From Pseudomonadota bacterium (GTDB lineage: Bacteria; Bdellovibrionota_G; JALEGL01; DATDPG01), in contig JAZDDX010000020.1 in NCBI GenBank assembly GCA_043809315.1, forward strand, positions 1 to 64,000: DNA of 64,000 bases, given 5' to 3'. Below are positions 12,621-30,943 of the stretch, piece by piece (within the stretch, counting starts at the first letter, position 1; each line of letters begins with the position of its first letter). A program made the translations under genes and the position numbers. The notes beneath the pieces are model-generated. The model had not been told where the DNA came from. It did no database searches and saw only the letters and a list, made by a program, of their open reading frames with translations.

Positions 12621-13432
12621 ACGACTTCACCTACTTCCCCGGCTGCTCGTTGCACGCGACGGCCCGCGAATACGACGAGTCGCTCCGCGCCGTGGCGCGC
12701 GAGGCGGGGCTATCCCTGCGAGAGATCAAAGACTGGTGCTGCTGCGGCGCCACGCCCGCGCATGCGCTCGACCCGAAAGCAGCGGAGATCCTCGGACGTT
12801 GGAATCTTGCGCAGGCCACGAAGGCGGGGAAATCCCCGGTCCTGACCGGCTGCGCCTCCTGCTTTTCACGCCTCCGCGCAGTTCGCGAGAAGACTGACCT
12901 CGCCGTCCTCCACATCGCACAGGTTCTCAACCATCCCGAGATGCGCGAAAAGCTCGCGGCGAAGATTCGGAAACCCCTTCAGGGGTTGAAGGTGGCCTGC
13001 TACTACGGCTGCCTCCTGACCCGACCCCGCGGGGAGGATGCCGTGGACGACGCCGAAAACCCCCGGATCCTCGAGGACCTCGTCCGGTTGACCGGGGCCG
13101 AAGCGGTCGATTGGCCGCTCCGCCTCGACTGCTGCGGGGCATCGATGGCGCTCCCGCGCCCCGATCTCGTCCGCGAGTTGTCGGGTAAGATTCTGACGAT
13201 GGCCCACGAGCGGGGGGCCGACGTGGTGATGGTGGCCTGCCCTCTCTGCCACTCCAACCTCGATTTTCAGCAGGAAGCCGCCCTGAAAGGGCGCGATTTC
13301 CGGATTCCGATCGTCTACCTCACGCAGCTGATCGGCCTCGCACTCGGAATCCCAGTGCAGAAGCTCGGCCTCCAGCGGCACTTCGTTCCGGTGCCGGCCA
13401 AAGAATGGCTGAAGGAGCCGGCGCATGTCTAG
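12617..13432 (+). CDS. hdrB: Heterodisulfide reductase subunit B (two CCG domains)
   Basis: YFPGC, WCCCG, CASC, YYGC, DCCG, ACPLC..NLD; ATGA coupling to hdrC. Confidence 0.93.
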   Translation: MNDFTYFPGCSLHATAREYDESLRAVAREAGLSLREIKDWCCCGATPAHALDPKAAEILGRWNLAQATKAGKSPVLTGCASCFSRLRAVREKTDLAVLHIAQVLNHPEMREKLAAKIRKPLQGLKVACYYGCLLTRPRGEDAVDDAENPRILEDLVRLTGAEAVDWPLRLDCCGASMALPRPDLVRELSGKILTMAHERGADVVMVACPLCHSNLDFQQEAALKGRDFRIPIVYLTQLIGLALGIPVQKLGLQRHFVPVPAKEWLKEPAHV

Positions 13433-15422
13433 GATCGGCGTCTTTATTTGTCACTGCGGTGAGAATATCGGACGGACGGTCGACTGCTCGAGGGTCGCTG
13501 AAGCGGTCAAGAACCTTCCCGGCGTCAAGATTTCGACCGACTACAAGTACGTCTGCTCCGACCCTGGACAGAACATGATCCGGCAGGCCGTGCGCGAGAA
13601 CAAACTAGACGGCGTGGTCGTGGCCGCCTGTTCACCGGCGATGCATGAGCCGACATTTCGCCGAGCGGTTGCGAACGAAGGTCTCAATCCGTTTCGCTGC
13701 GAGATGGTGAACCTGCGCGAGCAGTGTTCCTGGGTGCACGACGACCGCGAAGCCGCCACGGCGAAGGCGATCGATCTCGTCCGGATGATGGTCGAGAAGG
13801 TCAAGCGGAACCGGGATCTCTATCCGATTATGGTTCCGATGACCCGGCGAGCGCTCGTGGTGGGGGGCGGAATCGCCGGAATCCAGGCGGCCCTTGACCT
13901 CGCCAACAGCGGGCATTCGGTGGTGCTTGTGGAAAAAGACCCGTCGATCGGCGGGCATATGAGCCAGCTCTCCGAGACGTTCCCGACACTCGATTGCTCG
14001 CAGTGCATCCTGACGCCCCGGATGGTCGAGGTGGCACAGCATCCGTTGATCACCCTTCACACCTATTCCGAAGTCGAGAAGGTCGAAGGGTTCATCGGGA
14101 ATTTCAAAGTCACGATCCGCAAGAAAGCCCGCTACGTCGACATGGCGAAGTGCAACGGATGCGGAACCTGCATGCAGAAATGTCCCCAGAAAAAAATCCC
14201 CTCCACGTTCGACGCCGGTTTGGGGATGCGCGCCGCGATCTACGTCCCGTTCCCACAGGCGGTGCCGAACAAACCGGTCATCGACCGCGAGAACTGCACC
14301 TACTTCAAGAACGGGAAGTGCGGAGTCTGTGCCAAGCTTTGCGGTCCGAAAGCCGTGGATTTCACACAGGTGGACGAGGTCGTGACTGAGAATGTCGGCG
14401 CGGTGGTCCTGGCGACCGGGTATTCCCTCTACGACATCGGCGTAAACGAAGGTCCGGTCCGCGGATACCCGGAATACGGCGGCGGGAAGATCAAAGATGT
14501 GATCGACGGTCTCCAATTCGAGCGCCTCGCCTCGGCCTCGGGGCCGACCCAGGGGGAGATCCGCCGGCCCTCGGACGGGAAGATCCCGAAGACGATCGTT
14601 TTCCTTCAGTGCATCGGAAGCCGCGATTCCTCGAAAGGGATCGAGTACTGCTCGAAGATCTGCTGCATGTACACGGCGAAGCACGCCATCCTCTACAAAC
14701 ACAAAGTACACGACGGGAAGGCGATCGTTTTCTACATGGACGTCCGCGCCCCGGGGAAAGGGTACGACGAGTTCGTCCGAAGGGCCGTCGAGGAGGACGA
14801 GGTGCTTTACCTCCGCGGCCGCGTTTCACGAATGTACGAAGACAAGGGACAAATCGTCGTCTCCGGCGTCGACACGCTCTCCGCCCGAACGATGGAGATC
14901 CGCGCCGACCTCGTCGTCCTGGCGACCGCAACCCGGGCGCAGCCCAACGCCAACAAGTTGGCCCAGTTCTTCGGCGTGGGGTACGACGGCCATCAATTCT
15001 ATTCGGAAGCTCACCCGAAACTTCGCCCGGTCGAAACCGCCGCCGCCGGAATCTTCCTGGCGGGGGCCTGCCAGGGACCGAAGGACATCCCGGAATCGGT
15101 GGCCCAGGCGAGCGCCACGGCATCGAAAGTGAACGTCCTCTTCTCGAAAGAACTTCTCGAGCGCGAACCGATCGTGGCGCATGTGAACGAATCCACTTGC
15201 ATCGCCTGCCTCGCCTGCAAAGAAGTCTGCCCCTATAACGCCGTAGAGGTATTCGAAATCAAGGACAAGCAGGGGCGGCTCTTGAAGCGCGTGTCGCGTG
15301 TGAACACCGGCGTATGCAACGGCTGCGGCACCTGCATCGCAACCTGTCCGTCGAAATCGCTGGAGCTGGACGGCTACACGGACGAACAGATCCATGCCCA
15401 GATCGGAGCGTTGGTCGCATGA
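13425..15422 (+). CDS. hdrA: Heterodisulfide reductase subunit A, full-length
   Basis: IGVFICHCG, VAACSP, NLREQC, GGGIAG, TFPTLDCSQC, inserted and C-terminal 2x[4Fe-4S] motifs, CIGSRD, CSKICC, GPKDIP. Confidence 0.96.
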   Translation: MSRIGVFICHCGENIGRTVDCSRVAEAVKNLPGVKISTDYKYVCSDPGQNMIRQAVRENKLDGVVVAACSPAMHEPTFRRAVANEGLNPFRCEMVNLREQCSWVHDDREAATAKAIDLVRMMVEKVKRNRDLYPIMVPMTRRALVVGGGIAGIQAALDLANSGHSVVLVEKDPSIGGHMSQLSETFPTLDCSQCILTPRMVEVAQHPLITLHTYSEVEKVEGFIGNFKVTIRKKARYVDMAKCNGCGTCMQKCPQKKIPSTFDAGLGMRAAIYVPFPQAVPNKPVIDRENCTYFKNGKCGVCAKLCGPKAVDFTQVDEVVTENVGAVVLATGYSLYDIGVNEGPVRGYPEYGGGKIKDVIDGLQFERLASASGPTQGEIRRPSDGKIPKTIVFLQCIGSRDSSKGIEYCSKICCMYTAKHAILYKHKVHDGKAIVFYMDVRAPGKGYDEFVRRAVEEDEVLYLRGRVSRMYEDKGQIVVSGVDTLSARTMEIRADLVVLATATRAQPNANKLAQFFGVGYDGHQFYSEAHPKLRPVETAAAGIFLAGACQGPKDIPESVAQASATASKVNVLFSKELLEREPIVAHVNESTCIACLACKEVCPYNAVEVFEIKDKQGRLLKRVSRVNTGVCNGCGTCIATCPSKSLELDGYTDEQIHAQIGALVA

Positions 15423-17625: not shown

Positions 17626-18458
17626 GCCTCTACACCCCCCATCTCATGGAGATCACGGAAGCCCGTCGGGAGACGCCGGACGTCAAAACGTTCAAGCTCA
17701 AGTTCGTGGATCCCTCCGCGGCCGAACGTTTCTCGTTCCAAGCGGGGCAATTCGGTCTCTATTCCGCCTTCGGCGAAGGGGAGTCGACGTTCTGCATCGC
17801 TTCCCCTCCGACCTGGAAAGATCACATCGAGTGCACGTTTCGAAAGATCGGAAAAGTGACGGAGGGGCTCTTCAATAAAGAGCCGGGGGATGTGATCGGT
17901 TTCCGGGGCCCGTATGGGAACCGTTTTCCGCTGGAGGAGTTCGAGAAGAAAGATCTTCTCTTCGTGGTTGGCGGGATCGCGTTGCCCCCCCTTCGCTGCC
18001 TGATCTGGAACATTCTCGACGAGCGCAAGCGGTTCGGAGCGGTTCGGATTCTCTACGGCGCCCGCTCGGTGGGAGATCTGGTCTACAAAGACGAACTGAA
18101 AGCCTGGAGCGAACGTCCCGATATGGAGTTAGTGACCACCGTCGATCCCGGCGGAGAAACACCCGACTGGAAGGGGAAGGTCGGGTTTGTTCCGAAGATC
18201 CTAGACGAATGGGCCCCCTCCTCGAAAAACAGTTTAGCGTTCGTCTGCGGCCCGCCGATCATGATCAAACTTTCGATGCCGGTGTTGGAAAAACTCGGTT
18301 TCTCGCACGAGCGGATCTACACGACGCTCGAGAATCGGATGAAATGCGGCGTGGGGAAGTGCGGCCGCTGCAACATCGGCGGGACCTACGTCTGCAAGGA
18401 AGGGCCCGTCTTCACATTCGCCGAGATGTCGAAGCTCCCGATTTCGAGTGATTACTAG
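17622..18458 (+). CDS. flxA: FlxA, FAD/NAD(P)-binding subunit with a [2Fe-2S] cluster (AsrB/PyrK-like)
   Basis: GQF, GES, RGPYGN, GGIALPP, YGAR, CGPPIM, LENRMKCGVGKCGRC...CKEGPVF. Start moved to the ATGA overlap. Confidence 0.88.
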   Translation: MSLYTPHLMEITEARRETPDVKTFKLKFVDPSAAERFSFQAGQFGLYSAFGEGESTFCIASPPTWKDHIECTFRKIGKVTEGLFNKEPGDVIGFRGPYGNRFPLEEFEKKDLLFVVGGIALPPLRCLIWNILDERKRFGAVRILYGARSVGDLVYKDELKAWSERPDMELVTTVDPGGETPDWKGKVGFVPKILDEWAPSSKNSLAFVCGPPIMIKLSMPVLEKLGFSHERIYTTLENRMKCGVGKCGRCNIGGTYVCKEGPVFTFAEMSKLPISSDY

Positions 18459-18850
18459 GTACCGCAGCCGCAGGGGCCGAATCCGCAGTTGTTGTACTGA
18501 ACGCTGATCCGCGCGAGCTTCAAAAGCTTGCTGATCTCTTTCGGTTCCCCCATCGACCAACCGAGGAGCTCCATCCACGATTCGACATCTGTATCCGGTG
18601 CCGAACTGGCTGCCGACATCAACGCCCTTTCGACATCCCCCAAATCACACCCGACCTGACAGGTCGAAAAACAACCGCTCGAGATCTTCACTCGGGTCGC
18701 CTCCAACTGCCGGGGCAGCTCCGGTCCGAACGGGATCCCGCGGCCCCTCAATTCCTCGTGCCACGCCCCCAAAACGGCATAACGCAGACCGAATTTCTGC
18801 AAAACCGAGAATTCTTGCGTTTGGGAAGGGGTCGGAGCGGTTTCGGCCAT
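18455..18850 (-). CDS. Hypothetical Cys-rich protein, last gene of the mvh operon
   Basis: AGGAGG RBS; GCFSTCQVGC and C-terminal NNCGFGPCGCGT. Confidence 0.7.
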   Translation of the reverse strand: MAETAPTPSQTQEFSVLQKFGLRYAVLGAWHEELRGRGIPFGPELPRQLEATRVKISSGCFSTCQVGCDLGDVERALMSAASSAPDTDVESWMELLGWSMGEPKEISKLLKLARISVQYNNCGFGPCGCGT

Positions 18851-18880: not shown

Positions 18881-19387
18881 CTATACAGATTCGGCCCGAA
18901 CGAAACAAGGGGGGCGCGCGATCTTTTCGACTTCGGCGCCGATCTCCCGCGCATACTCCGGAAACCGCTGTTCGAGAGCTTCCGTCATCCGCTCGGAGAA
19001 CGTCAAATTGTCCTCCACCTCCACGGCAAAGATCGAAATCTCCTCCTCCCGCGGGATCTTCTGACCCATTCGGCGCCCCAACTCGAGCGCGGTCGCGAAG
19101 TTCGTGTCGTGAACGTTCCGGAGGTTCATCGTCTCGCGGAGATCGGTCCCGCCGAAACGGTACCAATCTCCCGGTTTACCGCCGGCCCCTTTGATGGAAT
19201 CCAACACGATCAGGCGATCGTACCCTTCCACAATATCCAAGATGTTGAGACCGCCAACCGAACATTCTTCCATGACCGTGAAGTCGGGAAGGTTTCCGAG
19301 CTGCTCTTTCAGATATCGCGCCAGCCGGACACCGACGGCGTCATCCGAAAGGATCGGATTTCCCATTCCCAGAAGAAGTGTTTTCAA
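18881..19387 (-). CDS. Hydrogenase maturation protease for MvhA
   Basis: LLLGMGNPILSDDAVG, LIVLDS, VHD; TTG start after GAGG. Confidence 0.9.
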   Translation of the reverse strand: MKTLLLGMGNPILSDDAVGVRLARYLKEQLGNLPDFTVMEECSVGGLNILDIVEGYDRLIVLDSIKGAGGKPGDWYRFGGTDLRETMNLRNVHDTNFATALELGRRMGQKIPREEEISIFAVEVEDNLTFSERMTEALEQRFPEYAREIGAEVEKIARPPCFVRAESV

Positions 19388-19394
19388 TGGACCT

Positions 19395-20861
19395 CTAAGG
19401 GCGCTTGAACTCCCAACGGAGCTCGTCTTCCTTGTAGATCCGAACATGGAGCGGCATCTGTCCAGGCAGCGAATGCGTCGCGCAGCTGTAGCAGGGGTCG
19501 AACGACCGGAACGCCATCTCCACCATATTTAAGATCCCCTGCGTCGGCTCCACCCCCGGCTTGATGAATGCAGCGGCGGCCTTCTTGGTCACCATGTGGA
19601 TCGGGGCGTTGTTGTTGGTCGTCCCGACAATCAGGTTCGCGCTCGTGCAGATCCCGTTCTTGTCGCAGGTATAGTGGTGCGTCAGCGTCCCGCGCATCGC
19701 CTCCACGATCCCGACCCCCTCCCCCGTGATCTGTTTCGGCACCACCCGGTAGTTCTTCCCGGTGATCTCAGGGTCGTCGCAATATCTCTGGAGCATCTCG
19801 GCGTTCTGGACCATTTCCACCAGCCGGGCCCAATGAGAGGCCATCAGGGCTTGGCACGGTTTCTTCCCCAACGTTTTGTACATCTCCTCGAACTTTTCCT
19901 GGGCCTTCGGCGTCGCCATCCGGTCCGCCACGTTGAGCCGCGCGAGCGGTGTAGCCATATAGATGCTGGAGTTGGGGCCTTCCTCGAACCCGTTCCACCC
20001 CCGTTTCTTCAGGTACGGGAACTTCAGGTACGACCACGGTTCGACATGCTCCGCCACGTACTGGACGTACTCCTCCGGCGAGTACTTGTAGAGCTCCTTC
20101 CCTTCGCAATCCACGACGCGAACCTTACCGTCGTAAAAGTTCGGGGCGTTGTTCTCGTCTACCAACCCCATATTTTGAACCTGAAGATTGTAGGGTCCCT
20201 TGAGGATCAGCTCGACGTAGGCGGGGTTCCCCAAGACCACCTTCTTGAAGAGATCGATTGAAAAAAGTGTGAAGTCATAGAGCTCCTTCACTCGCGGCCG
20301 AATCTCTTCCTCCAGCTCTTTTTTTGTGATCCCCTTGGAGACACCCCCCGGAAGACACCAGACAAGGTGCGTAAACCGCCCGCCGATGACTTTTTGGATC
20401 TCTTGTGCCTGAGCTCGGGCCTTGATCACCGCACCGCCGATCTCGAGCCCCACCTTGGCCACCACCCCGAGGATGTTTCGCATCGCAGGATCGGAGTCCG
20501 GCCCGCAGACGAAATCGGGGGCCGCGAGAGCGTAGAAATGGGCGATGTGACTGTGGATGTAGTGCGCGTGGTAATACATATCGCGCAGTTTGTGGGCCAG
20601 CGGCGGGCATTCGTTTCCGAAACAACCGTCCACCGCCTTGGCGCTCGCCATGTGATGGCTGGCCGGACAGACACCGCAGATTCTCGTCACGATCCTCGGA
20701 AGTTCCTCGATCGGCCTTCCCACGACGAACCGCTCGAACCCCCTCAACTCCGGGATCTGGAAATAGGTGTCTTGGACGGCCCCGTTGTCGTCCAGGAAGA
20801 TGTCGATCTTCCCGTGTCCTTCGAGGCGTGTGATCGGATCGATGGAAATGGTTCGGGTCAT
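19395..20861 (-). CDS. mvhA: Group 3c [NiFe]-hydrogenase large subunit
   Basis: TRLEGH, ELRGFE, L1 RICGVCPASH, HFYALAAPDFV, EAMRGTL, L2 FDPCYSCATH plus a cleavable C-terminal extension; next to mvhG and mvhD. Confidence 0.93.
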   Translation of the reverse strand: MTRTISIDPITRLEGHGKIDIFLDDNGAVQDTYFQIPELRGFERFVVGRPIEELPRIVTRICGVCPASHHMASAKAVDGCFGNECPPLAHKLRDMYYHAHYIHSHIAHFYALAAPDFVCGPDSDPAMRNILGVVAKVGLEIGGAVIKARAQAQEIQKVIGGRFTHLVWCLPGGVSKGITKKELEEEIRPRVKELYDFTLFSIDLFKKVVLGNPAYVELILKGPYNLQVQNMGLVDENNAPNFYDGKVRVVDCEGKELYKYSPEEYVQYVAEHVEPWSYLKFPYLKKRGWNGFEEGPNSSIYMATPLARLNVADRMATPKAQEKFEEMYKTLGKKPCQALMASHWARLVEMVQNAEMLQRYCDDPEITGKNYRVVPKQITGEGVGIVEAMRGTLTHHYTCDKNGICTSANLIVGTTNNNAPIHMVTKKAAAAFIKPGVEPTQGILNMVEMAFRSFDPCYSCATHSLPGQMPLHVRIYKEDELRWEFKRP

Positions 20862-21826
20862 CGTTGGTGTCTCCTTTGGAGAAGGGAACCTGGCAGTGCG
20901 AAACGGTAGGCGATTCCGGCAAAATCAGGAATATCATCCAGGATCCGTTCGATCTCTTTGGGATCCTTACTGTCGATGATCGAGGCGACCGCCGAAAGGA
21001 GCTTCGCCCCTTGATCTTTGACATTCGGAAGGGGCCCGTAACACCCGCGACACGGCATCCCGCTGTCGGGGCAGCGCACGCCGCAACCGGAGCGGGTCGC
21101 GGAACCGGCGCAGAGGATCCCCTGCTCCATCAGACACTTGTCGAAATCCTGGATGATCTGCCAGGGGCGGTAGAACTTCCTCACCTTCTTCTCGGCCTTC
21201 TCCCGCTTGCAGTCCTCGCAGACCGATCGCTCCGAAGCTCCGACAACGCTCCCTTTGGGAGGAAGCGCCCCCTTCACCACGGCCAGAAGGACCGCTTTCA
21301 CCTGAGCAGGAGCCGGCGGGCAGCCGGGGAGGTAGTAGTCGACCGGAACCACCTGGTCGAGTTTATAAACCCGTTGGTAGAAATTCGGAATCTCCAGCTC
21401 GTACCCGTTCACTTTTGAGTTCGGTTTCGGAACGATCCGGTTCCCCGGCTCGATCGACGCGTTGGTGAGATACGCCGTTTCTAGGATCTCCTCTTTCGTG
21501 GTTGTGTTCGCAAGCCCGGGGATCCCGCCCAGATGGGCGCACGATCCGAAGGCCACCAGTACCTTGCTCTTTTTGCGGAGGAGCTTCGCAACATGCTCGT
21601 TCTCGCTGTTCCGGACCGCTCCGTTGAAGAGCGTGAGATCCAGTTCACCGTCGATCATCGCTTCGACATCCTTGTATTTCCCATCGACCGCGATCGGCCA
21701 GAGACGTATGTCCGCGACCTCGGCCACGGTCAGAATGAACTCATTCGTGTCCAGTATGGCAACGTCGCAGCCCCCGCAACCGGCCCCCCAATAAATCGCG
21801 ATTTGAAGCTTTTTCGTGGTCGCCAT
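20858..21826 (-). CDS. mvhG: Group 3c [NiFe]-hydrogenase small subunit
   Basis: GCGGCD, FGSCA, PGCPP, VCEDC, CLMEQGILC, CGVRCP, PCRGCYGP; no Tat signal. Confidence 0.92.
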   Translation of the reverse strand: MATTKKLQIAIYWGAGCGGCDVAILDTNEFILTVAEVADIRLWPIAVDGKYKDVEAMIDGELDLTLFNGAVRNSENEHVAKLLRKKSKVLVAFGSCAHLGGIPGLANTTTKEEILETAYLTNASIEPGNRIVPKPNSKVNGYELEIPNFYQRVYKLDQVVPVDYYLPGCPPAPAQVKAVLLAVVKGALPPKGSVVGASERSVCEDCKREKAEKKVRKFYRPWQIIQDFDKCLMEQGILCAGSATRSGCGVRCPDSGMPCRGCYGPLPNVKDQGAKLLSAVASIIDSKDPKEIERILDDIPDFAGIAYRFALPGSLLQRRHQR

Positions 21827-21829: not shown

Positions 21830-22264
21830 CTACCTCCCACTCAAGTCGGCTTGAAGGTTTGCCTGAATCTGCGACGGCCCCAGGCGGCGCAGCTTTTCGG
21901 TCATGTCCGCCACGATGTCGGCGAACCGTTGCCCTTCGCTGGCACTCACCCATTCGAGGCGGACCCGGTCCTCCTCGATGCCGTACCAACGCATCACCCG
22001 CTTGAGGAGTTCGTATCGGCGCATCGCCTTGTAGTTCCCCTCCACGTAGTGACAGTCGCCGGGATGGCACCCGCAGATCAGGACGCCGTCCGCGCCCCCT
22101 TCGAGCGCTTTCATCACAAAACTCGGATCGATTCTCGCGGAGCACATCACGCGGATGATCCGGATGTTGGGCGGGTACTTGATCCGGCTGGTCCCCGCGA
22201 GATCGGCGCCAGTATAGGAGCACCAGTTGCAGAGAAAACCGACGATTCGAGGTTCATAGGCCAT
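21830..22264 (-). CDS. mvhD: MvhD [2Fe-2S] subunit
   Basis: FLCNWCSYTGAD, VMCSAR, GCHPGDCHY, WVSASEG. Confidence 0.95.
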   Translation of the reverse strand: MAYEPRIVGFLCNWCSYTGADLAGTSRIKYPPNIRIIRVMCSARIDPSFVMKALEGGADGVLICGCHPGDCHYVEGNYKAMRRYELLKRVMRWYGIEEDRVRLEWVSASEGQRFADIVADMTEKLRRLGPSQIQANLQADLSGR

Positions 22265-23973
22265 CAGAGCACCCCCTCAATCTGCGTGAAGATCTGTGCA
22301 TCGGTGAAGTGTCTCCCTTTGATCGCTCCCGAAGGGCAACTGGCGACACATGCGCCGCACGCCTTGCAGGTCGCGCTGTTCACCTTGCTCTTCTTCTTGA
22401 CGTCGTCGTAGTCGATCGCGAAAAACGGGCAGAGCTCGTTGCACATCCGGCAGCCCGAACAGAAATCTTCCTGGACCTCGGCGTAAACCGCGTCCACCCA
22501 AATCTTTCCTTGGGCGATCTTGCCCAGAATCCGGGCGGCCGCCGCGCGGGCTTGGCCTACCGAGTCAGGGATGTCCTTCGGGGACTGGCAAGCCCCGGCG
22601 ATAAAAACTCCCTCGGTCGTCGTGGCGACCGGATCAAGCTTCGGATGGCTTTCGATGAACCATCCGTCCTTGTCCCGACTGATGTTGACGAGCTGCGCGA
22701 CATGCTCGGAATCCTCGCGCGGCTCCATCCCGACCATCAACACCACCATGTCGGCCGGGATCTCGATATGTTCCCCGGAGAGATCCTCATCCACCGTGAT
22801 CAACATGCTGCAACCGTCCTTCGGCCCCGCTGTGCGGATCTCCGCCTCCTTGTTCTTGCGATACATCAGGAACATCGTCTTGATCTCGGCGCTCTTCCGG
22901 TAGAAGTCCTCGCATCCTTTCCCGAACGCATGCATGTCGATATAGAGGTCGGTGACGTACGCCGACGGGATCGCCGACTTGATTTCGTGGGCGTACTTCA
23001 AGGCCGTCATGCAACAGACCCGCGAGCAGTACGGATGGTAGTGCTCGCTGCGGCTCCCGACACAGTGGATGATCGAGACGTATTGGGGGAGCTTCCCCGA
23101 TTTCGTCCGGACCTCCCCTTTCCGGAGCATCGCCTCGAGTTCAAAGGAGGTGATGACGTCCGGAAAGAATCCGTATCCGTACGCCCGGACCCGGGAGGCG
23201 TCGAACTCCTTGTAACCGGTGCAAACGACAACCGAGCCGACGTCGAACTGTTTCTCGCTCCCGTTTCCGTTCCCGACGGTTGCCTTGAAGTTCCCCACGA
23301 ACCCTTCCAAAGCTTTGAGTTGCGATTCCAACAGCACGGTGATCTTCGGATGGTGCGTTGCGCGATAAACTCTCTCGTAGATGATATCGCGCGCTGAATC
23401 GAGGTACGGCGCCGTCAGATCATCCCTCGCCACATTCCCACCCAACTGTTTCGCACGTTCCACGAGATAGACCGGTTGTTCGGCATCCGCCAACTCCAGG
23501 GCTGCTGAAAGGCCAGCAATTCCGCCCCCCAGAACAAGTGTGGCGGGACACATCGGAACGGAGCGTTTCTCCAGCGGCTCGTGATGCGCAACGCGCAGAA
23601 CAGCGGCTCGTGTGAGCGCCTTGGCCTTTTCCGTCGCCGCGATCGGGTCGTCGTGAACCCAGCTGCACTGCTCTCGAATGTTGGCGCATTCAAGAAAGTA
23701 CGGGTTAATCCCCCCCGCCTCCAACGCTTTCCGGAATGTTCCTTCGTGCATCCTGGGACTACACGCCGCCACCACCACACGGTTGAGGCCATTCTCCTTG
23801 ATGTTGTGCGCAATCATTTCTTGCCCCGGATTGGAGCACATGTACTTGTACGCCCGCGTCACCGCCACCCCGGGCATCGCCGAGGTCATCTTGGCCACGG
23901 CATCACAGTCGATCACGTTGGCAATGTTGGTGCCGCAGTTGCAGATGAACACGCCGATCTTTTTCTCTTCCAT
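22264..23973 (-). CDS. hdrA: HdrA-like flavoprotein (HdrA''): N-terminal cluster domain and C-terminal ferredoxin present, inserted ferredoxin absent
   Basis: IGVFICNCG, VAACSP, NIREQC, GGGIAG, CVGSR, CSRVCC, SPKDIP, CSGCRMC..CP, CKACGAC..CP. GGAGG before ATG 23973; alternative GTG at 23988. Confidence 0.9.
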   Translation of the reverse strand: MEEKKIGVFICNCGTNIANVIDCDAVAKMTSAMPGVAVTRAYKYMCSNPGQEMIAHNIKENGLNRVVVAACSPRMHEGTFRKALEAGGINPYFLECANIREQCSWVHDDPIAATEKAKALTRAAVLRVAHHEPLEKRSVPMCPATLVLGGGIAGLSAALELADAEQPVYLVERAKQLGGNVARDDLTAPYLDSARDIIYERVYRATHHPKITVLLESQLKALEGFVGNFKATVGNGNGSEKQFDVGSVVVCTGYKEFDASRVRAYGYGFFPDVITSFELEAMLRKGEVRTKSGKLPQYVSIIHCVGSRSEHYHPYCSRVCCMTALKYAHEIKSAIPSAYVTDLYIDMHAFGKGCEDFYRKSAEIKTMFLMYRKNKEAEIRTAGPKDGCSMLITVDEDLSGEHIEIPADMVVLMVGMEPREDSEHVAQLVNISRDKDGWFIESHPKLDPVATTTEGVFIAGACQSPKDIPDSVGQARAAAARILGKIAQGKIWVDAVYAEVQEDFCSGCRMCNELCPFFAIDYDDVKKKSKVNSATCKACGACVASCPSGAIKGRHFTDAQIFTQIEGVL

Positions 23974-23984
23974 ACGTTCCTCCG

Positions 23985-25142
23985 TCACGCCGCCATCTTG
24001 ACCGCTGCCATCGCTTCAGGGACTTTCACTTTTCCACGCTCGATCGCCACCTCCTGCAGACGCGCAAAATACATCCCAAGCGGCCGGTACATGAGGTGCG
24101 ACCACTTTCCGAACGGTACAACAAGAAGCAGCATCGGCATGTCCGCCATCATGTGCGCAACATAAGCAAAGTTCGCGGCTGTCGTCAGCCCGGCGCGATG
24201 AAGGATGTGCTGGACGATCCCCGTCACCGTCATGGCAAGGAGAAGAATCAAAAATACCCAGTCGCTCTGATGGGAGTGTTTCAGGTACGTCCACTCTTTT
24301 CGTAGCCGCCCCCGCATCGCCCAGATCACGGTGAACAGAAGACCTGCCGAGGCAAAATAGCCGAAGGCATGAACGCGCCAGTCGATCTCCGGGCCCGCTT
24401 GCAGCTCATGCAGGAAGAACATGATCAGGGAGAACATCGTCACATAGCTCGCGACCAGGATTAGATGGAGCACCCACGGTTGTTTCCGTTCGCACTGCGA
24501 ATACCTTTTTTGCGTGAGAAAATGGAGCGGGAGAAGATAGGCTTGACGCACATAGTCCCAAAGAGGCGGTCGCATCTCCGTGTGCTTCCAGATCGAAAAC
24601 CACCACATTCGAAAACTGTTCGTAAGAAGAATGATGACGAGGAACCCCCCGAGAACCATATCGAACAGATGGACACCACCGGCAGTCAAGAAAGCGTTCG
24701 GGCCGTCGTAGATCGACGGATCTCCCCCTCCCAGGAACAAGCCCCCGAGGAAAAAGCCGATCCCGGTTAGGACCGCCACCAGTAAGATCGCCGTTAACTC
24801 AGCTTTCCAAGAACGGTAGAAGAGTTTGGAGAGCCCCGTGAAGTCGTATTGGCTCGTGAGCCAACGCCGCACGCTCATCATCGTCTCCCCCGGTTCGGCC
24901 CCACGTGGGCACTGGTCGGAACACTCGCCGCAGTAGTAGCAGAGCCACGGTTCCAAGGTGCCGCGCAGCCGTTCTTCCAGGCCCATCTGAAGATACCGCA
25001 TCGACCGGCGGGGGAAGATGAACGCCCCCTCCGAGAACGGGCAGGCCGCACTGCAGTTCCCGCAGTGGTAACATTTGGAAACGTCTTCGGCACCGTACCG
25101 TTCCAAGTCGTCGATCAATCTTGGATTCACCCGCACCGCCAT
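23985..25142 (-). CDS. qmoC: QmoC-like membrane subunit (2x[4Fe-4S] plus a probable heme b transmembrane domain)
   Basis: CYHCGNCSAACP and WLCYYCGECSDQCP, then about six hydrophobic helices containing His, SDW, and PFGKWSHLMYRP. Confidence 0.8.
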   Translation of the reverse strand: MAVRVNPRLIDDLERYGAEDVSKCYHCGNCSAACPFSEGAFIFPRRSMRYLQMGLEERLRGTLEPWLCYYCGECSDQCPRGAEPGETMMSVRRWLTSQYDFTGLSKLFYRSWKAELTAILLVAVLTGIGFFLGGLFLGGGDPSIYDGPNAFLTAGGVHLFDMVLGGFLVIILLTNSFRMWWFSIWKHTEMRPPLWDYVRQAYLLPLHFLTQKRYSQCERKQPWVLHLILVASYVTMFSLIMFFLHELQAGPEIDWRVHAFGYFASAGLLFTVIWAMRGRLRKEWTYLKHSHQSDWVFLILLLAMTVTGIVQHILHRAGLTTAANFAYVAHMMADMPMLLLVVPFGKWSHLMYRPLGMYFARLQEVAIERGKVKVPEAMAAVKMAA

Positions 25143-25164
25143 ATCGCGCCTCCTCTGATTCCCT

Positions 25165-26985
25165 TTAAGCCGCGGACAATCCGCGGGCCCGCTCCTCGAT
25201 TTCAGTCAGCGTCAGCCCCTGCCGGCTGTCGAGACCTTTTCCGCTCACAATCCCGCGCAACACTTTGGCCGCGACCGCGGACGCCTGTGCCACCGTGTCC
25301 GGGATATCCTTCGGCCCCTGGCAAACCCCCGCCACGAAGACCCCCCCCATCTCCGTCGAACTCGGCTCCACGTTATACTCAAGCTCCGTGAACCACCCAT
25401 CTTGGGTCCGGGAGATCTTCAGCATCTTCGCCAACTCCCCGGAATCGGGTTGCGGTTCCAGGCCGACCGAGAGGATCACCATGTCCACCGCGAGCTCCGG
25501 AACCGAGTTGTCCAGGATGTTCTCCCCTTTGAGGAACATCTGCCCATTCTTCTCTTCAACCTTGGCCGACCGGCCCCGCACGACGAACACCCCTTCGTGC
25601 TTGATCCGTTCGAAGAACTCCTCGTACCCTTTCCCGAACGCCCGCATGTCGATGTAATACTCGTAACATTTCGCCTCCGGCAGTTTCTCCCGCACCAGAT
25701 GGGAGAACTTGAGCGAGTACATGCAGCAGACCCGGGAGCAATAAGCGTTGAAGTTCTCGTCCCGCGACCCGACGCAGTGGATGATCGCCACGCTCTTGGG
25801 CCCGGGCCCTGCCGGGTTGAACACCCACTCCTCGACCTTCTTCCGTTTGTTCATCTCTTTCGTCTTCATGACGATCTTCCCGCCGGTCGGGCCGGAAGCA
25901 TTCGTGAGCCGTTCGAATTCCAGGGCGGTCAGGACATTCGGATATTTGCCATATCCGTAACGTTCGATCCGCCGCGCGTCGAACGTTTTGTAGCCGGTGG
26001 CCACGATGATGTTCCCCACCTCCAACTCCACCGTCTCGTCTTTCGCTTCGAGTTGAATGGACCCCTTCATGCATTTCCGCACGCAGGCGCCGCATTTCTT
26101 CCCGTCGCTTAAGACCCAGGTACAGACATCCCCGTCGATGAAATAGGTATTCGGGACGGCTTGAGGGAACGGGATGTAGATCGCCTTCCTCGTGCTGATT
26201 CCCTCATCGAAACCGCTGGCGACAACCACGGGGCAAACCACTGCGCAGTCTCCGCAGGCCACGCAGGTACTGGCGTCCACGCGGGCTGTCTTGCGATCGA
26301 TCTTGACCTTGTATGCTCCCGGCCGGCCGCTTACCTCTTTCACGCGGGAGAGCATCATCAACTCGATGTTCGGATTCTGGCCGACGCTCACCATCTTAGG
26401 GGTCAGGATGCAGGCGGCGCAATCAAGCGTCGGAAAGGTCTTATCGAACTGGGCCATATGCCCGCCAATCGTCTCGCCCTGTTCCACCAGGTAGACTTTG
26501 TACCCGGCGTCTGCAATCTCGATCGCGGCTTGGATCCCGGCAATCCCGCCGCCGATCACCAGCGTGGCCGGATTCACGGGGGAGGTGGCGGGGACCGCCG
26601 CCAGACCGAACGGGACCCCGTAGACGGCGCAGGCCACGACCGCTTTCGCCCGATCGGTGGCGCCTCCCTGCTCCGTGCCTTGTGCACGGAATGAAGCGAG
26701 GCGAACCTGCTCCGGGTCGTTTTCGACCTCGACCATCGCTTTCGTATAGGCCGGTTTGAAGTACCCCGGCATCTCCCCCGCCAGAACGATGGCAGTGAGC
26801 TTGGCCTCGCGAAGGTGCTCCGCGATCTCGGCCGGTTTCAGCTTCACAGTGGCGGATCGGATCTGAACCTCAGCCACACCAGGAAGCTTCCGGACATATT
26901 CGGCAACAGCTTCGTATTCAATCGGATTCTTGGGAATCTCGACGGGTTGAAAGATCACGACACCAATTCTCTTTTGCTCTGGCAT
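25165..26985 (-). CDS. hdrA: HdrA-like flavoprotein (HdrA'): degenerate N-terminal domain, inserted ferredoxin present, no C-terminal ferredoxin
   Basis: GGGIAG, KTFPTLDCAAC, CVACGDC..CP, PFPQAVP, LEFER, CVGSRD, CSRVCC, GPKDIP. Confidence 0.9.
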   Translation of the reverse strand: MPEQKRIGVVIFQPVEIPKNPIEYEAVAEYVRKLPGVAEVQIRSATVKLKPAEIAEHLREAKLTAIVLAGEMPGYFKPAYTKAMVEVENDPEQVRLASFRAQGTEQGGATDRAKAVVACAVYGVPFGLAAVPATSPVNPATLVIGGGIAGIQAAIEIADAGYKVYLVEQGETIGGHMAQFDKTFPTLDCAACILTPKMVSVGQNPNIELMMLSRVKEVSGRPGAYKVKIDRKTARVDASTCVACGDCAVVCPVVVASGFDEGISTRKAIYIPFPQAVPNTYFIDGDVCTWVLSDGKKCGACVRKCMKGSIQLEAKDETVELEVGNIIVATGYKTFDARRIERYGYGKYPNVLTALEFERLTNASGPTGGKIVMKTKEMNKRKKVEEWVFNPAGPGPKSVAIIHCVGSRDENFNAYCSRVCCMYSLKFSHLVREKLPEAKCYEYYIDMRAFGKGYEEFFERIKHEGVFVVRGRSAKVEEKNGQMFLKGENILDNSVPELAVDMVILSVGLEPQPDSGELAKMLKISRTQDGWFTELEYNVEPSSTEMGGVFVAGVCQGPKDIPDTVAQASAVAAKVLRGIVSGKGLDSRQGLTLTEIEERARGLSAA

Positions 26986-28031: not shown

Positions 28032-29192
28032 ATGAAGATGAAAAAACCGGTTTGGTTCGCTCTGTCCCTGTTTGCGTGTGTTCTTCCAACGGGTCTCCTG
28101 GCCGAAGAAACGAACCTGAAATTCGTTTCCAGCAAATTGGAGGCGAAAATCTATGGGTATTTGAAGGTCGACGCGATTTTCGACGATTCGCAGATCTATC
28201 CCGGCAATATCGCGTTATTCGTCAAGAGCCCGACGACCGGAAGCGCCAACCAGTTCAATTTGACGGCAAACCAGACCCGCCTCGGACTTTCGATCAAAGG
28301 GCCGGCGGATCTCCCCCCTCTCGTCAGCGGAACCATCGAGATGGATTTCTACGGGGGCGGGGCCGAGAACATGCCGAATCCGAGACTCTACAAGGGTTAC
28401 GTCGAACTCAAATGGCCTTCCTTCTTGATCTTGGCCGGCCAGGACTGGGATACGTTTTCCCTCCTCTACCCCACCTGTCTGAACTTCGGGTACCTCGGGA
28501 CCGCGGGAGGTCTCCAATACCGAAGGCCTCAACTGCGTGCCATCAAGTCATTCCCGATATCCGCCGGCTCGAAAGTGTCGTTTGCGGCTGCGATCGCCAA
28601 GACAATTCCTTCCAGTCTGGGCGCTGCGGGAACGAGCCGTGAAGCAGGGTGGCCGACGTTGGAAGGAAGGTTGGCGTATGAAAACAAAATCTTCGAGAAT
28701 CTCCCGCTGACGCTCGCGTACTCCGGGCACTTCGGACAGGAACGGGTACGATGGAATCAGGCCCCCGGCGACATCAACTACGCTTCCTGGTCGATGAACG
28801 GCGAACTGCTCGTTCCTCTTGGGACACGTGCGTACTTCAAGGGGGAAGGTTTCTTGGGGTCGAATCTCGACGCTTACTACGGCGGCATCCTCCAAGGGAT
28901 CAACGCGGTCACCGGGCACACCATCAAAGCGATGGGCGGCTGGGGAGAGCTGACGTTCCTCTCCACGGAGAAACTCACATTTCACCTTGGAGCAGGCGTT
29001 GATCATCCGTTTCGGGACAATCTCAACGACGGGGATCGGTCGCAGAACCTCGCTGTCTTCGGAAATGTCTACTACGATTTCCTGAGCTACCTCACGCTCG
29101 CGTTCGAGTACTCCCACTATCGGACTTTCTACAAGAATGGTCCGCACGGCGACGACAACCGTTTCCATACCGCCATGATCCTAAACTTCTGA
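28032..29192 (+). CDS. Outer-membrane porin, DcaP-like
   Basis: Signal peptide, IYGYLKVDAIFD, TRLG, EMDFYG, LAGQDWDTF, RRPQLR, C-terminal Phe. Start moved to the ATG after GGAG. Confidence 0.75.
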   Translation: MKMKKPVWFALSLFACVLPTGLLAEETNLKFVSSKLEAKIYGYLKVDAIFDDSQIYPGNIALFVKSPTTGSANQFNLTANQTRLGLSIKGPADLPPLVSGTIEMDFYGGGAENMPNPRLYKGYVELKWPSFLILAGQDWDTFSLLYPTCLNFGYLGTAGGLQYRRPQLRAIKSFPISAGSKVSFAAAIAKTIPSSLGAAGTSREAGWPTLEGRLAYENKIFENLPLTLAYSGHFGQERVRWNQAPGDINYASWSMNGELLVPLGTRAYFKGEGFLGSNLDAYYGGILQGINAVTGHTIKAMGGWGELTFLSTEKLTFHLGAGVDHPFRDNLNDGDRSQNLAVFGNVYYDFLSYLTLAFEYSHYRTFYKNGPHGDDNRFHTAMILNF

Positions 29193-29627
29193 GAGGATAC
29201 GACGAACGTACTCATCCAAGCGCTGTTGGATGGTTTTCGAGAGGTCCCCTACCCCGATATTTTCCGGCTCGATTCCTAAGATCACGATCTCCGGGATGCG
29301 ATAGCCGAGCTCTTTCGCCAGTTGGATCACTTTCAGAACATCCCCCTCGTGTGTGGAGATCCCATCCAGGCTTTTTTGTGTCGTGACGTCATCCGGATGG
29401 AAAAGAAAATGCTCCCCCGGCTTCTTTCCCGCCCGAACGGCATCGACGATTATGATCATTCCGGTGTCATCCCGGAAGTAGTCGATGAGATTGAGCCCGC
29501 TGTCGGGGAGAAGAACCGCCTCGAAATCGCGATCGAGATTGCGACGAACGACCTCCTCGACGACCCGGAGGCCGATCGAGTCGTCCCCCATCGTCCAGTT
29601 CCCGAGGCCGACAAGATATCGCTTCAC
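29181..29627 (-). CDS. Hydrogenase maturation protease for the group 3b enzyme
   Basis: GLGNWTMGDDSIG, IIVDAV, STHE, LGIEP; GTGA overlap with hydA. Confidence 0.9.
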   Translation of the reverse strand: MKRYLVGLGNWTMGDDSIGLRVVEEVVRRNLDRDFEAVLLPDSGLNLIDYFRDDTGMIIIVDAVRAGKKPGEHFLFHPDDVTTQKSLDGISTHEGDVLKVIQLAKELGYRIPEIVILGIEPENIGVGDLSKTIQQRLDEYVRRILSEV

Positions 29628-30943
29628 CGGACGAACGTGACATCCAGGTAATGCGTCGAGCAAGAGATGCAGGGATCGTACGCCCGGACCAGCATTTCGA
29701 GGGCCAGCTCCATCTCCTTCTCCTCGTTCTTCTGAGCGATCAGCTCCGGTACAAGCTTGTCGAAATCCCGCTGAATGTTCGCGTGGTTCTGGTTCGTCGG
29801 GATGATGCAGTCCCCCCCCTGACACATGCAGTCCTTGTCGTAGACATAGCTGTGGAAGAGGATCCCGCGCGGAACCTCGACCGCCCCGAACCCTTCTCCG
29901 TGCCGGGTCGGTTTCTTCGGCTCCTCTTCGACGATCCCCTTCGTCAACAGCTCCTCCAGGAGACAGAGCGTCTCGTGCACCGAGTGAACCGCTTCAACGA
30001 CCTGGGCGGCGGTGTTCAGGTACGGGTTGAAAACCGGCGGCTTCATTCCCAGAGCCTTCGCCACCATCTGCGCTTCCGGACGTAGCTGTTCGTAGTTGTT
30101 GTTGAACCGCGCCAAAGCTCCGGCCATGTAGCTGTCCAATTTGTTCTTCGTGTACTTCGCCGTCGACTGCGGAACGACATATTCGTTCGTACATTCCCGG
30201 TAGTCTTTCACCGGCCACTGCCCCTTGCTGCCATCCGGCAGGACGGTCTGGATCAGACCGTCGTACAGCCCGTACTCCACCTCACTGTGCAAAGCCATGT
30301 ACTCCGTCTCCCGGACGAATGCCGGGAACTTGTCTTTGAGACTCAGAACGAGGTCGAGAACCGCGTCGACATCCGGCAAGCACTCCTTGAGGAACCGATC
30401 TTTGAGATTCTTCAGTTCCTTGTTCGTCGAAAGGGAGGCGAACCCCCCCGGGACCGCTTTCGTCGGGTGCGTCGTCCGGCCGCCAATCAGGGAACCCCAC
30501 TCGTGGGCGAACCGTTTCAGGCGCAGGGCGGTCTTCACCACTTCGGCATGCGCCGGAATCATCTTGAAGACGGAGGCCTGGCCGACCAGATCCGGGGACG
30601 CCAAGAAAAGAGAGTGAAGGATGTGCGAATCGAAGTTCTCGGCATGTTTCAGGATCTGGCGGAGCTTGAAAGTCTGCTCGCTCACCTGGATCCCGAGCGC
30701 GTCTTCGGTCGCTTTGAGCGACGCCAGCGTGTGTCCGATCGAGCAGATCCCGCAGATCCGGCTGGTGATCCGCGCCACCTCGCTATAGTGCCGTCCGCGG
30801 ACCATCGCTTCGAAGAAGCGGGGGGCTTCCGGAACCTGCCACTCGCATTTCTCCACACGCCCGCTTTTCACGTTGACGACGATGTTCCCGTGCCCCTCGA
30901 CCCTGGTGAGGTGGTGAACATGGATGTCGGCATTCCGGATCAT
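29624..30943 (-). CDS. hydA: Group 3b [NiFe]-hydrogenase (sulfhydrogenase-type) alpha subunit
   Basis: TRVEGH, EAPRFFE, L1 RICGICSIGH, EVPRG, L2 YDPCISCSTH plus a short tail. Confidence 0.93.
   Translation of the reverse strand: MIRNADIHVHHLTRVEGHGNIVVNVKSGRVEKCEWQVPEAPRFFEAMVRGRHYSEVARITSRICGICSIGHTLASLKATEDALGIQVSEQTFKLRQILKHAENFDSHILHSLFLASPDLVGQASVFKMIPAHAEVVKTALRLKRFAHEWGSLIGGRTTHPTKAVPGGFASLSTNKELKNLKDRFLKECLPDVDAVLDLVLSLKDKFPAFVRETEYMALHSEVEYGLYDGLIQTVLPDGSKGQWPVKDYRECTNEYVVPQSTAKYTKNKLDSYMAGALARFNNNYEQLRPEAQMVAKALGMKPPVFNPYLNTAAQVVEAVHSVHETLCLLEELLTKGIVEEEPKKPTRHGEGFGAVEVPRGILFHSYVYDKDCMCQGGDCIIPTNQNHANIQRDFDKLVPELIAQKNEEKEMELALEMLVRAYDPCISCSTHYLDVTFVR

Follow-up and report, generated by a model that had tools for sequence, protein, structure and literature searches.

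Complementary domain losses in two HdrA paralogs encoded with a QmoC-like subunit point to a probable heterodimer with a single electron path

Introduction

In cryo-EM work on HdrA, the mobile arm belonging to one protomer is reported to serve its partner's flavin and clusters (FAD', HA4' and HA5'; PMC12350162), and Cys197 of HdrA is described as a ligand, in trans, of the N-terminal cluster of the partner protomer (PMC9012536). The Glu356/Lys409 pair has been put forward as the marker of HdrA-type bifurcating flavoproteins (PMC12054007). Tandem or fused HdrA proteins of ANME have been interpreted as heterodimers (PMC9012536), and BamE is described as carrying two FADs, a structural one and a bifurcating one (with Lys) that adjoins a Cys59-Cys62 pair (10.64898/2026.04.10.717634). 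Type II QmoABC complexes are reported to be nearer to typical HdrA than to type I QmoAB and may lack Apr/Dsr (PMC10504309). An 'Mvh-Qmo-Hdr' cluster of Ca. Methanoglobus nevadensis and Ca. M. hypatiae, said to be strongly expressed in the latter, was suggested to bifurcate electrons from H2 to menaquinone and ferredoxin (10.1101/2022.12.01.518715, 10.1101/2023.09.08.556235). No QmoAB structure was found among 6 PDB matches.

Here we describe a module in which two HdrA paralogs, HdrA' and HdrA'', flank a QmoC-like gene and together would retain a single electron path out of the two present in an ancestral HdrA homodimer.

Results and discussion

Gene organisation

The module lies on the minus strand of a 64,000-nucleotide stretch of bacterial DNA (the window), in the order hdrA'-qmoC-like-hdrA'', and is followed by hydrogenase genes. 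The features discussed below are:

25165..26985, minus strand: HdrA' (putative QmoA-like role), open reading frame of 606 aa
26410..26421, minus strand: CxxC of HdrA', C189-x-x-C192, matching Cys194/Cys197 of 5ODC by alignment and conservation
26053..26283, minus strand: inserted ferredoxin domain of HdrA', residues 235-311, 2x[4Fe-4S]
23985..25142, minus strand: QmoC-like subunit, 385 aa, HdrC-type 2x[4Fe-4S] domain plus membrane domain
22264..23988, minus strand: HdrA'' (putative QmoB-like role), 574 aa counted from GTG
23584..23961, minus strand: N-terminal cluster (shuttle) domain of HdrA'', residues 10-135, with C16, C18, C51 and C76
22309..22488, minus strand: C-terminal ferredoxin domain of HdrA'', residues 501-560, 2x[4Fe-4S]
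21830..22264, minus strand: MvhD [2Fe-2S] adaptor (PF02662, 189.5 bits; NF045873)
20858..21826, minus strand: MvhG, F420-non-reducing-type [NiFe] hydrogenase small subunit (NF045875 top match, under cut-off)
19395..20861, minus strand: MvhA, [NiFe] hydrogenase large subunit (NF041785 top match, under cut-off)
18881..19447, minus strand: hydrogenase maturation protease (TIGR00072, above cut-off)
13425..15422, plus strand: full-length HdrA of a separate hdrCBA-flxDCBA operon, for comparison only

An ATG at 23973, preceded by GGAGG and giving a product of 569 aa, is a likelier start for HdrA'' than the GTG. Both Ni-binding motifs of MvhA are intact. The module's operon contains no HdrB gene, the nearby hdrCBA being situated in the opposite-strand Flx operon, and the full-length HdrA encoded there falls outside the module and in another clade than HdrA' and HdrA''.

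Complementary domains and residues

The first-pass annotation had proposed that the two paralogs underwent complementary domain losses. All of the motifs it quoted are present in the translations, and the split was found to be near-invariant across 241 proteins (121 of the HdrA' type and 120 of the HdrA'' type). When aligned with solved HdrA (8RVU), HdrA' matched over residues 3-583; it lacks the C-terminal ferredoxin and keeps the FAD/TrxR core, the HA4 cluster, the inserted 2x[4Fe-4S] ferredoxin and the CxxC loop. HdrA'' aligned over residues 3-238 and 245-573, skipping the inserted ferredoxin, and keeps the N-terminal cluster, the FAD/TrxR core, HA4, the HPK loop and the C-terminal 2x[4Fe-4S] ferredoxin. 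Its N-terminal cluster and C-terminal ferredoxin correspond to the 'mobile arm' of solved HdrA, the carrier of MvhD.

Every HdrA'-type protein contained the CxxC and all eight Cys of the inserted ferredoxin (121/121 for each) and none the C-terminal ferredoxin (0/121). The first Cys of the N-terminal domain was retained in 88/121, being Phe in the window copy, and the remaining ligands have been lost. This cluster-less domain is still predicted to fold (pLDDT ~90 across most of residues 21-130), and the HdrA' model gave a target-normalised TM-score of 0.88 against the rigid core 8RWN (chain of 428 residues). In the HdrA''-type proteins the four N-domain Cys and the Cys of the C-terminal ferredoxin were conserved in 120/120, while the CxxC positions (S198/D201 in the window) were occupied by Ser in 119 and Ala in 1, and by Asp in 115 and Glu in 5, respectively. 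HdrA' is most likely the bifurcating protomer, by homology, and its inserted ferredoxin is the probable low-potential exit to ferredoxin; HdrA'' is probably the mobile-arm protomer, and its C-terminal ferredoxin may serve as the electron entry from the hydrogenase.

The retention of the flavin-associated Glu and Lys in both paralogs, also noted in the first pass, was borne out: alignment to 5ODC equates E358 and K426 of HdrA' with E356 and K409, and HdrA'' retains E285 and K331, so that both proteins carry the Glu356/Lys409 marker. Lys187 and Lys524, for which the alignment confirmed the numbering alone, presumably flank the flavin; literature searches on the roles of these two residues returned nothing. 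The shared Glu/Lys pair would not by itself make both flavins bifurcating, because, of the 115 core columns that are at least 95% conserved among 72 full HdrA, HdrA'' lacks 23, among them the CxxC loop, R448 and E488. HdrA' has lost 6 of these columns (HPK loop, Y/F458).

Could the FAD and HA4 of HdrA'' nonetheless form a second redox path, to another partner or as an electron store, in a dimer that is asymmetric without being half-silent? The invariance of its Glu, Lys and all four HA4 Cys (120/120 proteins) and the presence of a near-invariant, HdrA''-specific Cys393 would fit such a role. However, HdrA'' no longer has the CxxC loop or the docking residues on the HA4 side, and the arm that would feed its flavin carries no clusters. 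Furthermore, the second FAD of BamE is described as retaining its cluster and has still been judged structural (10.64898/2026.04.10.717634), and HA4 is degraded in 2/20 QmoB. We regard a second active flavin as improbable, and that of HdrA'' as likely structural. A purely structural role leaves unexplained why HdrA'' retains the Glu/Lys pair and the HA4 Cys; the non-bifurcating site of BamE has Gln.

Co-occurrence and synteny

A scan of genome contigs with P0001 was dominated by full HdrA (74/80 loci), and co-occurrence was therefore re-tested from the HdrA'' side and on whole genomes. The QmoC gene was located 5' of that for HdrA'' in 76/76 metagenome loci with at least 300 nt upstream. HdrA' was encoded upstream of HdrA'' in 49/49 loci with at least 3.2 kb and in 59/60 with at least 1.6 kb; in the sole miss (L103) the contig edge carries a fragment of HdrA'. 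Within one class of 201 genomes the two forms were found in the identical 3, and a family of 25 genomes held both in 17, its apparent singletons (n = 6) being located at contig ends. The phylum search around genome G018 comprised 1 genome and that around G076 comprised 12, each form being matched once. The two forms thus travel together, lone copies being seen only at contig ends. No donor module was seen at 12/80 loci, of which two or three (L130, L157, L161) have ample downstream DNA, and in some lineages FlxABC(D), the NADH-linked donor, takes the place of the hydrogenase.

These data bear on whether the paralogs form independent homodimers, are decaying, or instead partner the full HdrA located 7 kb away, at 13425. 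One homodimer would be without the input arm, the other without the CxxC and exit domain. Co-occurrence is strict and conservation strong, and in two genomes (G031 and G033) HdrA' and HdrA'' were the only HdrA at E<=1e-30. Any of these arrangements is thus barely credible. The earlier suggestion that a homodimer had subfunctionalised into a heterodimer is favoured by the complementarity of the trans Cys, the strict synteny, the residue-level complementarity and the precedent of BamE.

Relationship to QmoA and QmoB

In a careful, unrooted tree of 49 rows, whose sampling had no rows from methanogens or Archaeoglobi and no named type II rows, type I QmoA and QmoB were separated from the FAD domains of HdrA' and HdrA'' with a support of 100/100, and the latter grouped with 7 full HdrA (96/98); a quick tree of 110 rows gave the same groups. 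AU tests rejected HdrA' with QmoA (p=4e-5) and HdrA'' with QmoB (p=2e-48); a sister relationship of HdrA' and HdrA'' through a single duplication was neither rejected nor demonstrated (p=0.39). Neither form falls inside the type I QmoA/QmoB clades, and the split seems to have arisen separately. The module had been viewed as either an HdrA-to-QmoAB intermediate or a parallel invention; within the above sampling, the tree and AU tests reject the former and argue for the latter.

Predicted docking of the QmoC-like subunit

The membrane domain of the QmoC-like subunit has His226, His330, His349 and Cys217 in common with canonical QmoC, and by homology may bind haem; no fourth haem ligand was found in this comparison (three His in common). 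A predicted complex of its Fe-S domain with both HdrA subunits scored 0.89, the best control reaching 0.64, on a scale whose pass mark was reached by 116/157 solved pairs and 2/215 mismatched pairs; since similar complexes have already been solved, the pass may reflect memorisation. The runs shared at least 97% of contacts, with partner pLDDT of at least 84. QmoC residues 25-28 and 79 were placed against HdrA' residues 404-411, 445 and 488 (the HA4 loop) and HdrA'' residues 363-375 and 403-411, surfaces that coincide with the residues each paralog has retained. In the model, the Fe-S domain thus docks across both subunits, adjoining HA4 of HdrA'. The first-pass annotation had one protomer docking MvhD and the other QmoC. 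This is borne out in part: the model wires QmoC to HA4 of HdrA', but its contacts involve both protomers. Counting against the reading, QmoC still scored 0.64 on HdrA'' when HdrA' was replaced.

Proposed mechanism and direction

As the arm of solved HdrA serves the flavin of the other protomer, the HdrA'/HdrA'' pair would amount to one working half of the homodimer, and by analogy the cross-protomer mechanism would match the partition exactly. We consider it probable that the two proteins form an obligate heterodimer holding a single electron path from H2 to quinone and ferredoxin. MvhAG would oxidise H2, or FlxABC(D) would supply electrons from NADH in some lineages, and HdrA'', by its C-terminal ferredoxin, and MvhD would relay the electrons to the HdrA' FAD, where they would be bifurcated. 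The high-potential electron would leave via HA4 of HdrA' and the QmoC-like subunit's Fe-S clusters and haems for the quinone pool; the low-potential electron would use the CxxC of HdrA' and the shuttle cluster of HdrA'' to reach the inserted ferredoxin of HdrA' and then soluble ferredoxin. In HdrA'', FAD and HA4 would have a mainly structural part, and this protein would contribute the other half of the site at which QmoC docks.

The operon has no ferredoxin gene, as might be expected if the pair merely wired a cytoplasmic hydrogenase to the membrane as a non-bifurcating H2:quinone oxidoreductase. This is very unlikely: the eight Cys of the inserted ferredoxin, the CxxC, the Glu/Lys pair and the shuttle cluster, all of which serve the low-potential branch, are invariant.

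The same heterodimer might instead run in reverse and confurcate, drawing on quinol together with reduced ferredoxin to make H2, or NADH via Flx, and re-oxidising quinol in fermentation or syntrophy. HdrA-type flavins are reversible, and confurcation has been proposed for QmoABC (PMC3333476). In the host genome, Fe-S proteins resembling succinate dehydrogenase, complex I and pyruvate:ferredoxin oxidoreductase, recognised from a motif scan and N-termini only, could give quinol and reduced ferredoxin. The reported potentials of menaquinol (-75 mV) and ferredoxin (~-450 mV) have a mean near that of H2 only if H2 is very low, however, and the reverse reaction would require such conditions. Many multihaem cytochromes, which could use up quinol, are also encoded in the genome, as is a separate group 3b-type hydrogenase. 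We therefore consider this direction rather unlikely, and bifurcation from H2 or NADH to quinone and ferredoxin the likely function by homology. Profile searches of the genome for quinone synthesis detected no MqnA, no MqnC or MenB above cut-off, and a MenA-like gene under cut-off.

Whether this extends to a widespread membrane-anchored family that takes electrons from H2 or NADH and bifurcates them to quinone and ferredoxin, arose by an independent halving of the HdrA homodimer, converged with QmoA/QmoB and BamE down to single residues and kept a cluster-less N-terminal domain as a structural plug is, in our judgement, evenly balanced. If so, many non-sulfate-reducing, non-methanogenic anaerobic bacteria would possess an H2- or NADH-driven route feeding both the quinone pool and ferredoxin, through genes at present annotated plainly as HdrA. 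With a single arm and a single active flavin, the pair would be the simplest system for testing conformational gating in HdrA. Repeated halving (type I QmoAB, BamE-like fusions, ANME pairs and the present clade) supports a cross-protomer gating model, and we infer a prediction for a long-open question: the coupling site of QmoABC would be the flavin of QmoA rather than that of QmoB, QmoB acting as the arm.

Comparison with known systems

The methanogen complexes MvhAGD-HdrABC and Elp/Fdh-Hdr (5ODC, 8RVU, 7BKB) share the fold, the cofactor motifs and the Mvh input module, but contain a symmetric HdrA homodimer with HdrBC reducing CoM-S-S-CoB, where the present module has a membrane anchor and no HdrB. 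Type I QmoABC, the canonical form known from sulfur oxidisers and sulfate reducers, has the same QmoC-type anchor. QmoA combines the FAD core, an inserted ferredoxin and a trans Cys motif without an arm, the cofactor set of HdrA'. QmoB combines the N-terminal domain, core, C-terminal ferredoxin and MvhD without the insert or CxxC, an architecture that upholds the earlier likening of HdrA'' plus MvhD to a split QmoB. The gene order differs (A'-C-A'' against A-B-C), MvhD is a separate gene instead of being fused within QmoB, the N-terminal domain is cluster-less in HdrA' but absent from QmoA, and the trans Cys motif is CxxC instead of CxxxC. The electron partner is a hydrogenase or Flx instead of AprAB, and the QmoC-like subunit (NF038018, 166.8 bits against a cut-off of 300) belonged to a clade apart from canonical QmoC in a quick tree.

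The module agrees with type II QmoABC as defined in PMC10504309, HdrA' and HdrA'' grouping with full HdrA and the 96%-complete genome containing no DsrA and no AprA (best match 31.9 bits against a cut-off of 641.75). As described, the Archaeoglobi Mvh-Qmo-Hdr cluster likewise has MvhAGD, two HdrA and an HdrC-QmoC fusion without AprAB; it is called unique or conspicuous there, and we liken it by gene content, domain complementarity not appearing in the text consulted. The ANME pairs HdrA5/6, 12/13 and 3/4 are reported to show complementary losses of the N-domain/Cys197 and of the C-terminal ferredoxin, but their main text leaves QmoC unmentioned and reports the N-domain as missing, where HdrA' keeps it without its cluster (PMC9012536). 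BamE, of class II benzoyl-CoA reductase, is described as a likewise asymmetric HdrA dimer, whose moving arm bears an MvhD-like adaptor and whose high-potential branch leads finally to menaquinone. It is a solved, fused single chain, however, with outputs to BamD/ETF and BamBC and with Gln in place of Lys at the second FAD (10.64898/2026.04.10.717634), whereas HdrA' and HdrA'' are two proteins and HdrA'' retains the Lys. The novelty of the arrangement was thus overrated in the first pass, the same split being known from type I QmoA/QmoB, tandem ANME HdrA and fused BamE and a similar Archaeoglobi cluster having been published; as the concept of halving is already known, the gain lies in its breadth, its separate origin and a testable residue map.

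Organisation of the operon

The paralogs HdrA' and HdrA'' are encoded on the minus strand in a tight operon with the gene order hdrA', qmoC-like (membrane subunit), hdrA'', mvhD, mvhG, mvhA and maturation protease. A separate hdrCBA-flxDCBA operon is convergent with it and carries the full-length HdrA at 13425, which belongs to a different clade; pairwise identity among the three HdrA proteins is 38-39%.

25165-26985, minus strand: hdrA', first gene of the operon
23985-25142, minus strand: qmoC-like, between hdrA' and hdrA''
22264-23988, minus strand: hdrA'', after qmoC-like
18455-18850, minus strand: Cys-rich ORF (131 aa), directly after the maturation protease
12087-18458, plus strand: hdrCBA, then an MvhD/FlxD-FlxC fusion, FlxB-like and FlxA-like (HdrABC-FlxABCD type)
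29181-34954, minus strand: second [NiFe] hydrogenase of group 3b (sulfhydrogenase) type, plus protease and HypA/HypB-like genes

The Cys-rich ORF had no match in Pfam or NCBIfam; its relatives likewise trail the operon at loci L096 and L175 from other genomes or metagenomes. The group 3b-type genes lie upstream of the hdrA' operon on the same strand.

Complementary split of HdrA' and HdrA''

All motifs quoted in the first-pass annotation were found in the translations. Against solved HdrA, HdrA' aligned over the N-domain, FAD core and inserted ferredoxin and stopped short of the C-terminal ferredoxin, while the alignment of HdrA'' omitted the inserted ferredoxin. HdrA' C189/C192 correspond to Cys194/Cys197 in 5ODC numbering (a solved HdrA complex). 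As had been noted, both paralogs keep the Glu and Lys of the bifurcating flavin (Glu356/Lys409, same numbering), which PMC12054007, in its available text, gives as a marker of bifurcating HdrA.

The family was sampled as the best 120 matches per protein search, with 8000 candidates scored for each paralog. Among these best matches, the CxxC and eight inserted-ferredoxin Cys were present in 121/121 HdrA'-type rows and the C-terminal ferredoxin in none (0/121); 88/121 kept the first N-domain Cys alone. The four N-domain and eight C-terminal Cys occurred in all 120 HdrA''-type rows, the inserted ferredoxin in 0/120, and the CxxC positions read S (119) or A (1) and D (115) or E (5). The complementary losses first seen in one genome are thus near-uniform, and the split is a family trait. 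Prediction gave a folded structure for the cluster-less N-domain and the last helix of HdrA' (mean pLDDT 81.6), and the HdrA' model matched the rigid core chain of 8RWN, another solved complex, with a TM of 0.88. Of 115 core columns with at least 95% conservation in 72 full HdrA (duplicate loci and the frameshifted L166 excluded), 23 were lost in HdrA'' (n=81) and 6 in HdrA' (n=59); the partition extends down to single residues.

Relationship to canonical Qmo

Canonical Qmo loci were excised from the 19 genomes, among 301, with QmoC over the cut-off. In most of them aprA, read from the N-terminus of the long flavoprotein gene and not from a family scan, lay beside qmoA. Canonical QmoA consists of core and insert, with CxxxC, and QmoB of N-domain, core, C-terminal ferredoxin and MvhD, with neither insert nor CxxC. 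Because QmoA and QmoB show the identical partition, the complementarity is the standard Qmo layout, and the suggested likeness of HdrA'' plus MvhD to a split QmoB holds in that both have the same domain set.

This likeness had been read as either an HdrA-to-QmoAB intermediate or a parallel invention. In a careful FAD-core tree (49 rows subsampled from 265 distinct units, unrooted, built without methanogen, Archaeoglobi or named type II rows), QmoA and QmoB lay on one side (100/100) and HdrA' (100/99) and HdrA'' (100/100) outside it, grouping with seven full-length HdrA (96/98) away from the full HdrA of the window; a quick 110-row tree had the same outcome. AU tests rejected HdrA'+QmoA (p=4e-5) and HdrA''+QmoB (p=2e-48) and did not reject HdrA'+HdrA'' (p=0.39). 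Tree and tests together therefore disfavour the intermediate and favour parallel invention. Further clades showing the identical split were tandem HdrA in fused form and another type of MvhD/QmoA-like/QmoB-like/QmoC cluster.

This other cluster type (L223, L229, L231 and L232, not all with QmoC), whose FAD domains fall in other clades, is a candidate for a further independent split; the QmoB-like protein of L223 retains a degenerate inserted ferredoxin. L220 and L221 have type I (canonical) QmoA/QmoB with an AprA-like neighbour, yet a QmoC from the clade of the HdrA'/HdrA'' module, so membrane subunits appear to have been exchanged between systems. In Dehalococcoidales (L008, L014 (L226)) a divergent QmoC-like gene has a full-length HdrA as its neighbour; in L008 fused tandem HdrA, MvhD and HdrCB come next. 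A Bacteroidota genome (L233) has a type I QmoA/QmoB pair on a short contig from which qmoC is absent; similar open frames of 700-790 aa occur in many genomes of a 25-genome family.

Co-occurrence and distribution

Searching from the HdrA' side, 6/80 genome loci were HdrA'-type; QmoC-like followed in 6/6 and HdrA'' came next in all five with room. From the HdrA'' side, the best 80 of 524 metagenome loci (75 distinct cores) had QmoC-like upstream in 76/76 with at least 300 nt available, and HdrA' upstream in 49/49 with 3.2 kb and 59/60 with 1.6 kb. Of 201 whole genomes in one class, three had HdrA' and the same three had HdrA''. In the 25-genome family HdrA' was found in 18, HdrA'' in 22 (>50% identity, one partial) and both in 17; in the six genomes with a single form the gene sits at the end of a contig, and two of the six have HdrA' fragments. 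Since related genomes are not independent, these counts are tallies and not statistics.

Donor genes at the best 80 of 524 loci were MvhD downstream (46), MvhA upstream (15) and FlxB/FlxA upstream (7); 12, mostly short contigs, had none, and L130, L157 and L161 had none in 2.5-8 kb of downstream DNA. FlxB/FlxA, and not hydrogenase, precede the HdrA'-QmoC-HdrA'' trio at L004, L005, L146, L150, L153, L155, L160, L164, L171 and L243, also with MvhD where the DNA allows.

Named carriers include Actinomycetota, Acidobacteriota and Bacteroidota. Among the genome of the window (G000) and its near relatives, 31 in all, only G000 and G001 have HdrA', which indicates a patchy distribution. The record of L004 is titled Saccharimonadales, an unlikely host; its HdrA pair is nearest to an Acidobacteriota copy, possibly through mis-binning.

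Membrane subunit and host genome

The QmoC-like protein has eight Fe-S Cys, Cys217 and three His in common with 18 canonical QmoC; no fourth haem ligand was found in this comparison. A canonical Qmo role was ruled out, as AprA and DsrA are absent from the host genome (96% complete). In the same genome MqnA is absent, MqnC and MenB were not over the cut-off, and the only MenA-like prenyltransferase (L235:32-1303) has an N-terminal extension and scores below the cut-off. The genome nevertheless encodes many membrane redox proteins; those resembling succinate dehydrogenase and complex I, and the multihaem proteins, were detected by motif scan only.

A complex of HdrA' 139-580, HdrA'' 148-495 and QmoC 1-100 was modelled with a score of 0.89 against 0.64 for the best control, a mark reached by 116/157 solved and 2/215 mismatched pairs, counts that are only rough for three chains. 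Runs agreed on at least 97% of contacts, with partner pLDDT of at least 84; since structures of HdrA-HdrC complexes already exist, likeness to them may account for the high score. In the model, residues 25-28 and 79 at the QmoC clusters were placed against the HA4 (Fe-S cluster) loop of HdrA' (404-411, 445, 488). On HdrA'' the contacts with QmoC were made by 363-375 and 403-411 and did not involve the HA4 loop of this subunit. Within these surfaces lie E488, which HdrA'' has lost, and Y363, which HdrA' has lost. The model thus suggests that QmoC spans both subunits and is wired to HdrA'. The earlier proposal that one protomer docks QmoC agrees with this as to cluster wiring and departs from it as to contact.

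Proposed mechanism and comparison with known systems

In HdrA, as far as the accessible text of PMC12350162 describes, one protomer's arm works on FAD', HA4' and HA5' of its partner; the high-potential electron exits via HA4' and the low-potential electron passes from a shuttle cluster to HA5' in the inserted ferredoxin of the other protomer; Cys197 is reported to ligate the N-terminal cluster of the partner (PMC9012536). HdrA'' carries precisely the arm (N-terminal cluster and C-terminal ferredoxin), and HdrA' precisely the half that receives it, so that the pair may represent one working half of an HdrA homodimer. We consider it very probable that HdrA' and HdrA'' form a heterodimer, and predict, with less assurance, that it probably bifurcates electrons from H2 to quinone and ferredoxin at an active HdrA' flavin. 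Against this scheme, no sampled HdrA'' homolog has lost the Glu, the Lys or HA4; the fourth haem ligand that was not found and the Mqn and Men genes absent or below the cut-off in the host genome also weigh against it. In BamE, a solved fused HdrA dimer, one FAD is described as bifurcating, with a Cys59-Cys62 relay, and the second as structural (10.64898/2026.04.10.717634); the site of this second FAD has, from the same account, Gln where HdrA'' keeps Lys. The Flx-preceded trio is a possible NADH to quinone and ferredoxin version, functionally similar to EtfABCX.

A paper describing the bacterial clade or the residue-level split was not found in a search without most subscription literature, including key HdrA review and structure papers; the supplementary figures of PMC10504309 may already hold the clade. 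That source, as available, defines type II QmoAB as nearer HdrA and occurring without Apr/Dsr, and gives QmoAB at least two origins. Accessible parts of other papers cover QmoABC confurcation (PMC3333476), a Sporomusa tandem HdrA with one marked flavin (PMC9430772) and ANME heterodimers proposed from Cys197/N-domain complementarity (PMC9012536). A cluster of MvhAGD, two HdrA and HdrC-QmoC in Archaeoglobi has, from the published descriptions, the same gene set and was proposed to bifurcate H2 electrons to menaquinone and ferredoxin (10.1101/2022.12.01.518715; 10.1101/2023.09.08.556235). The module is real, conserved and mechanistically coherent, and is a variant of a known design, not a new kind.
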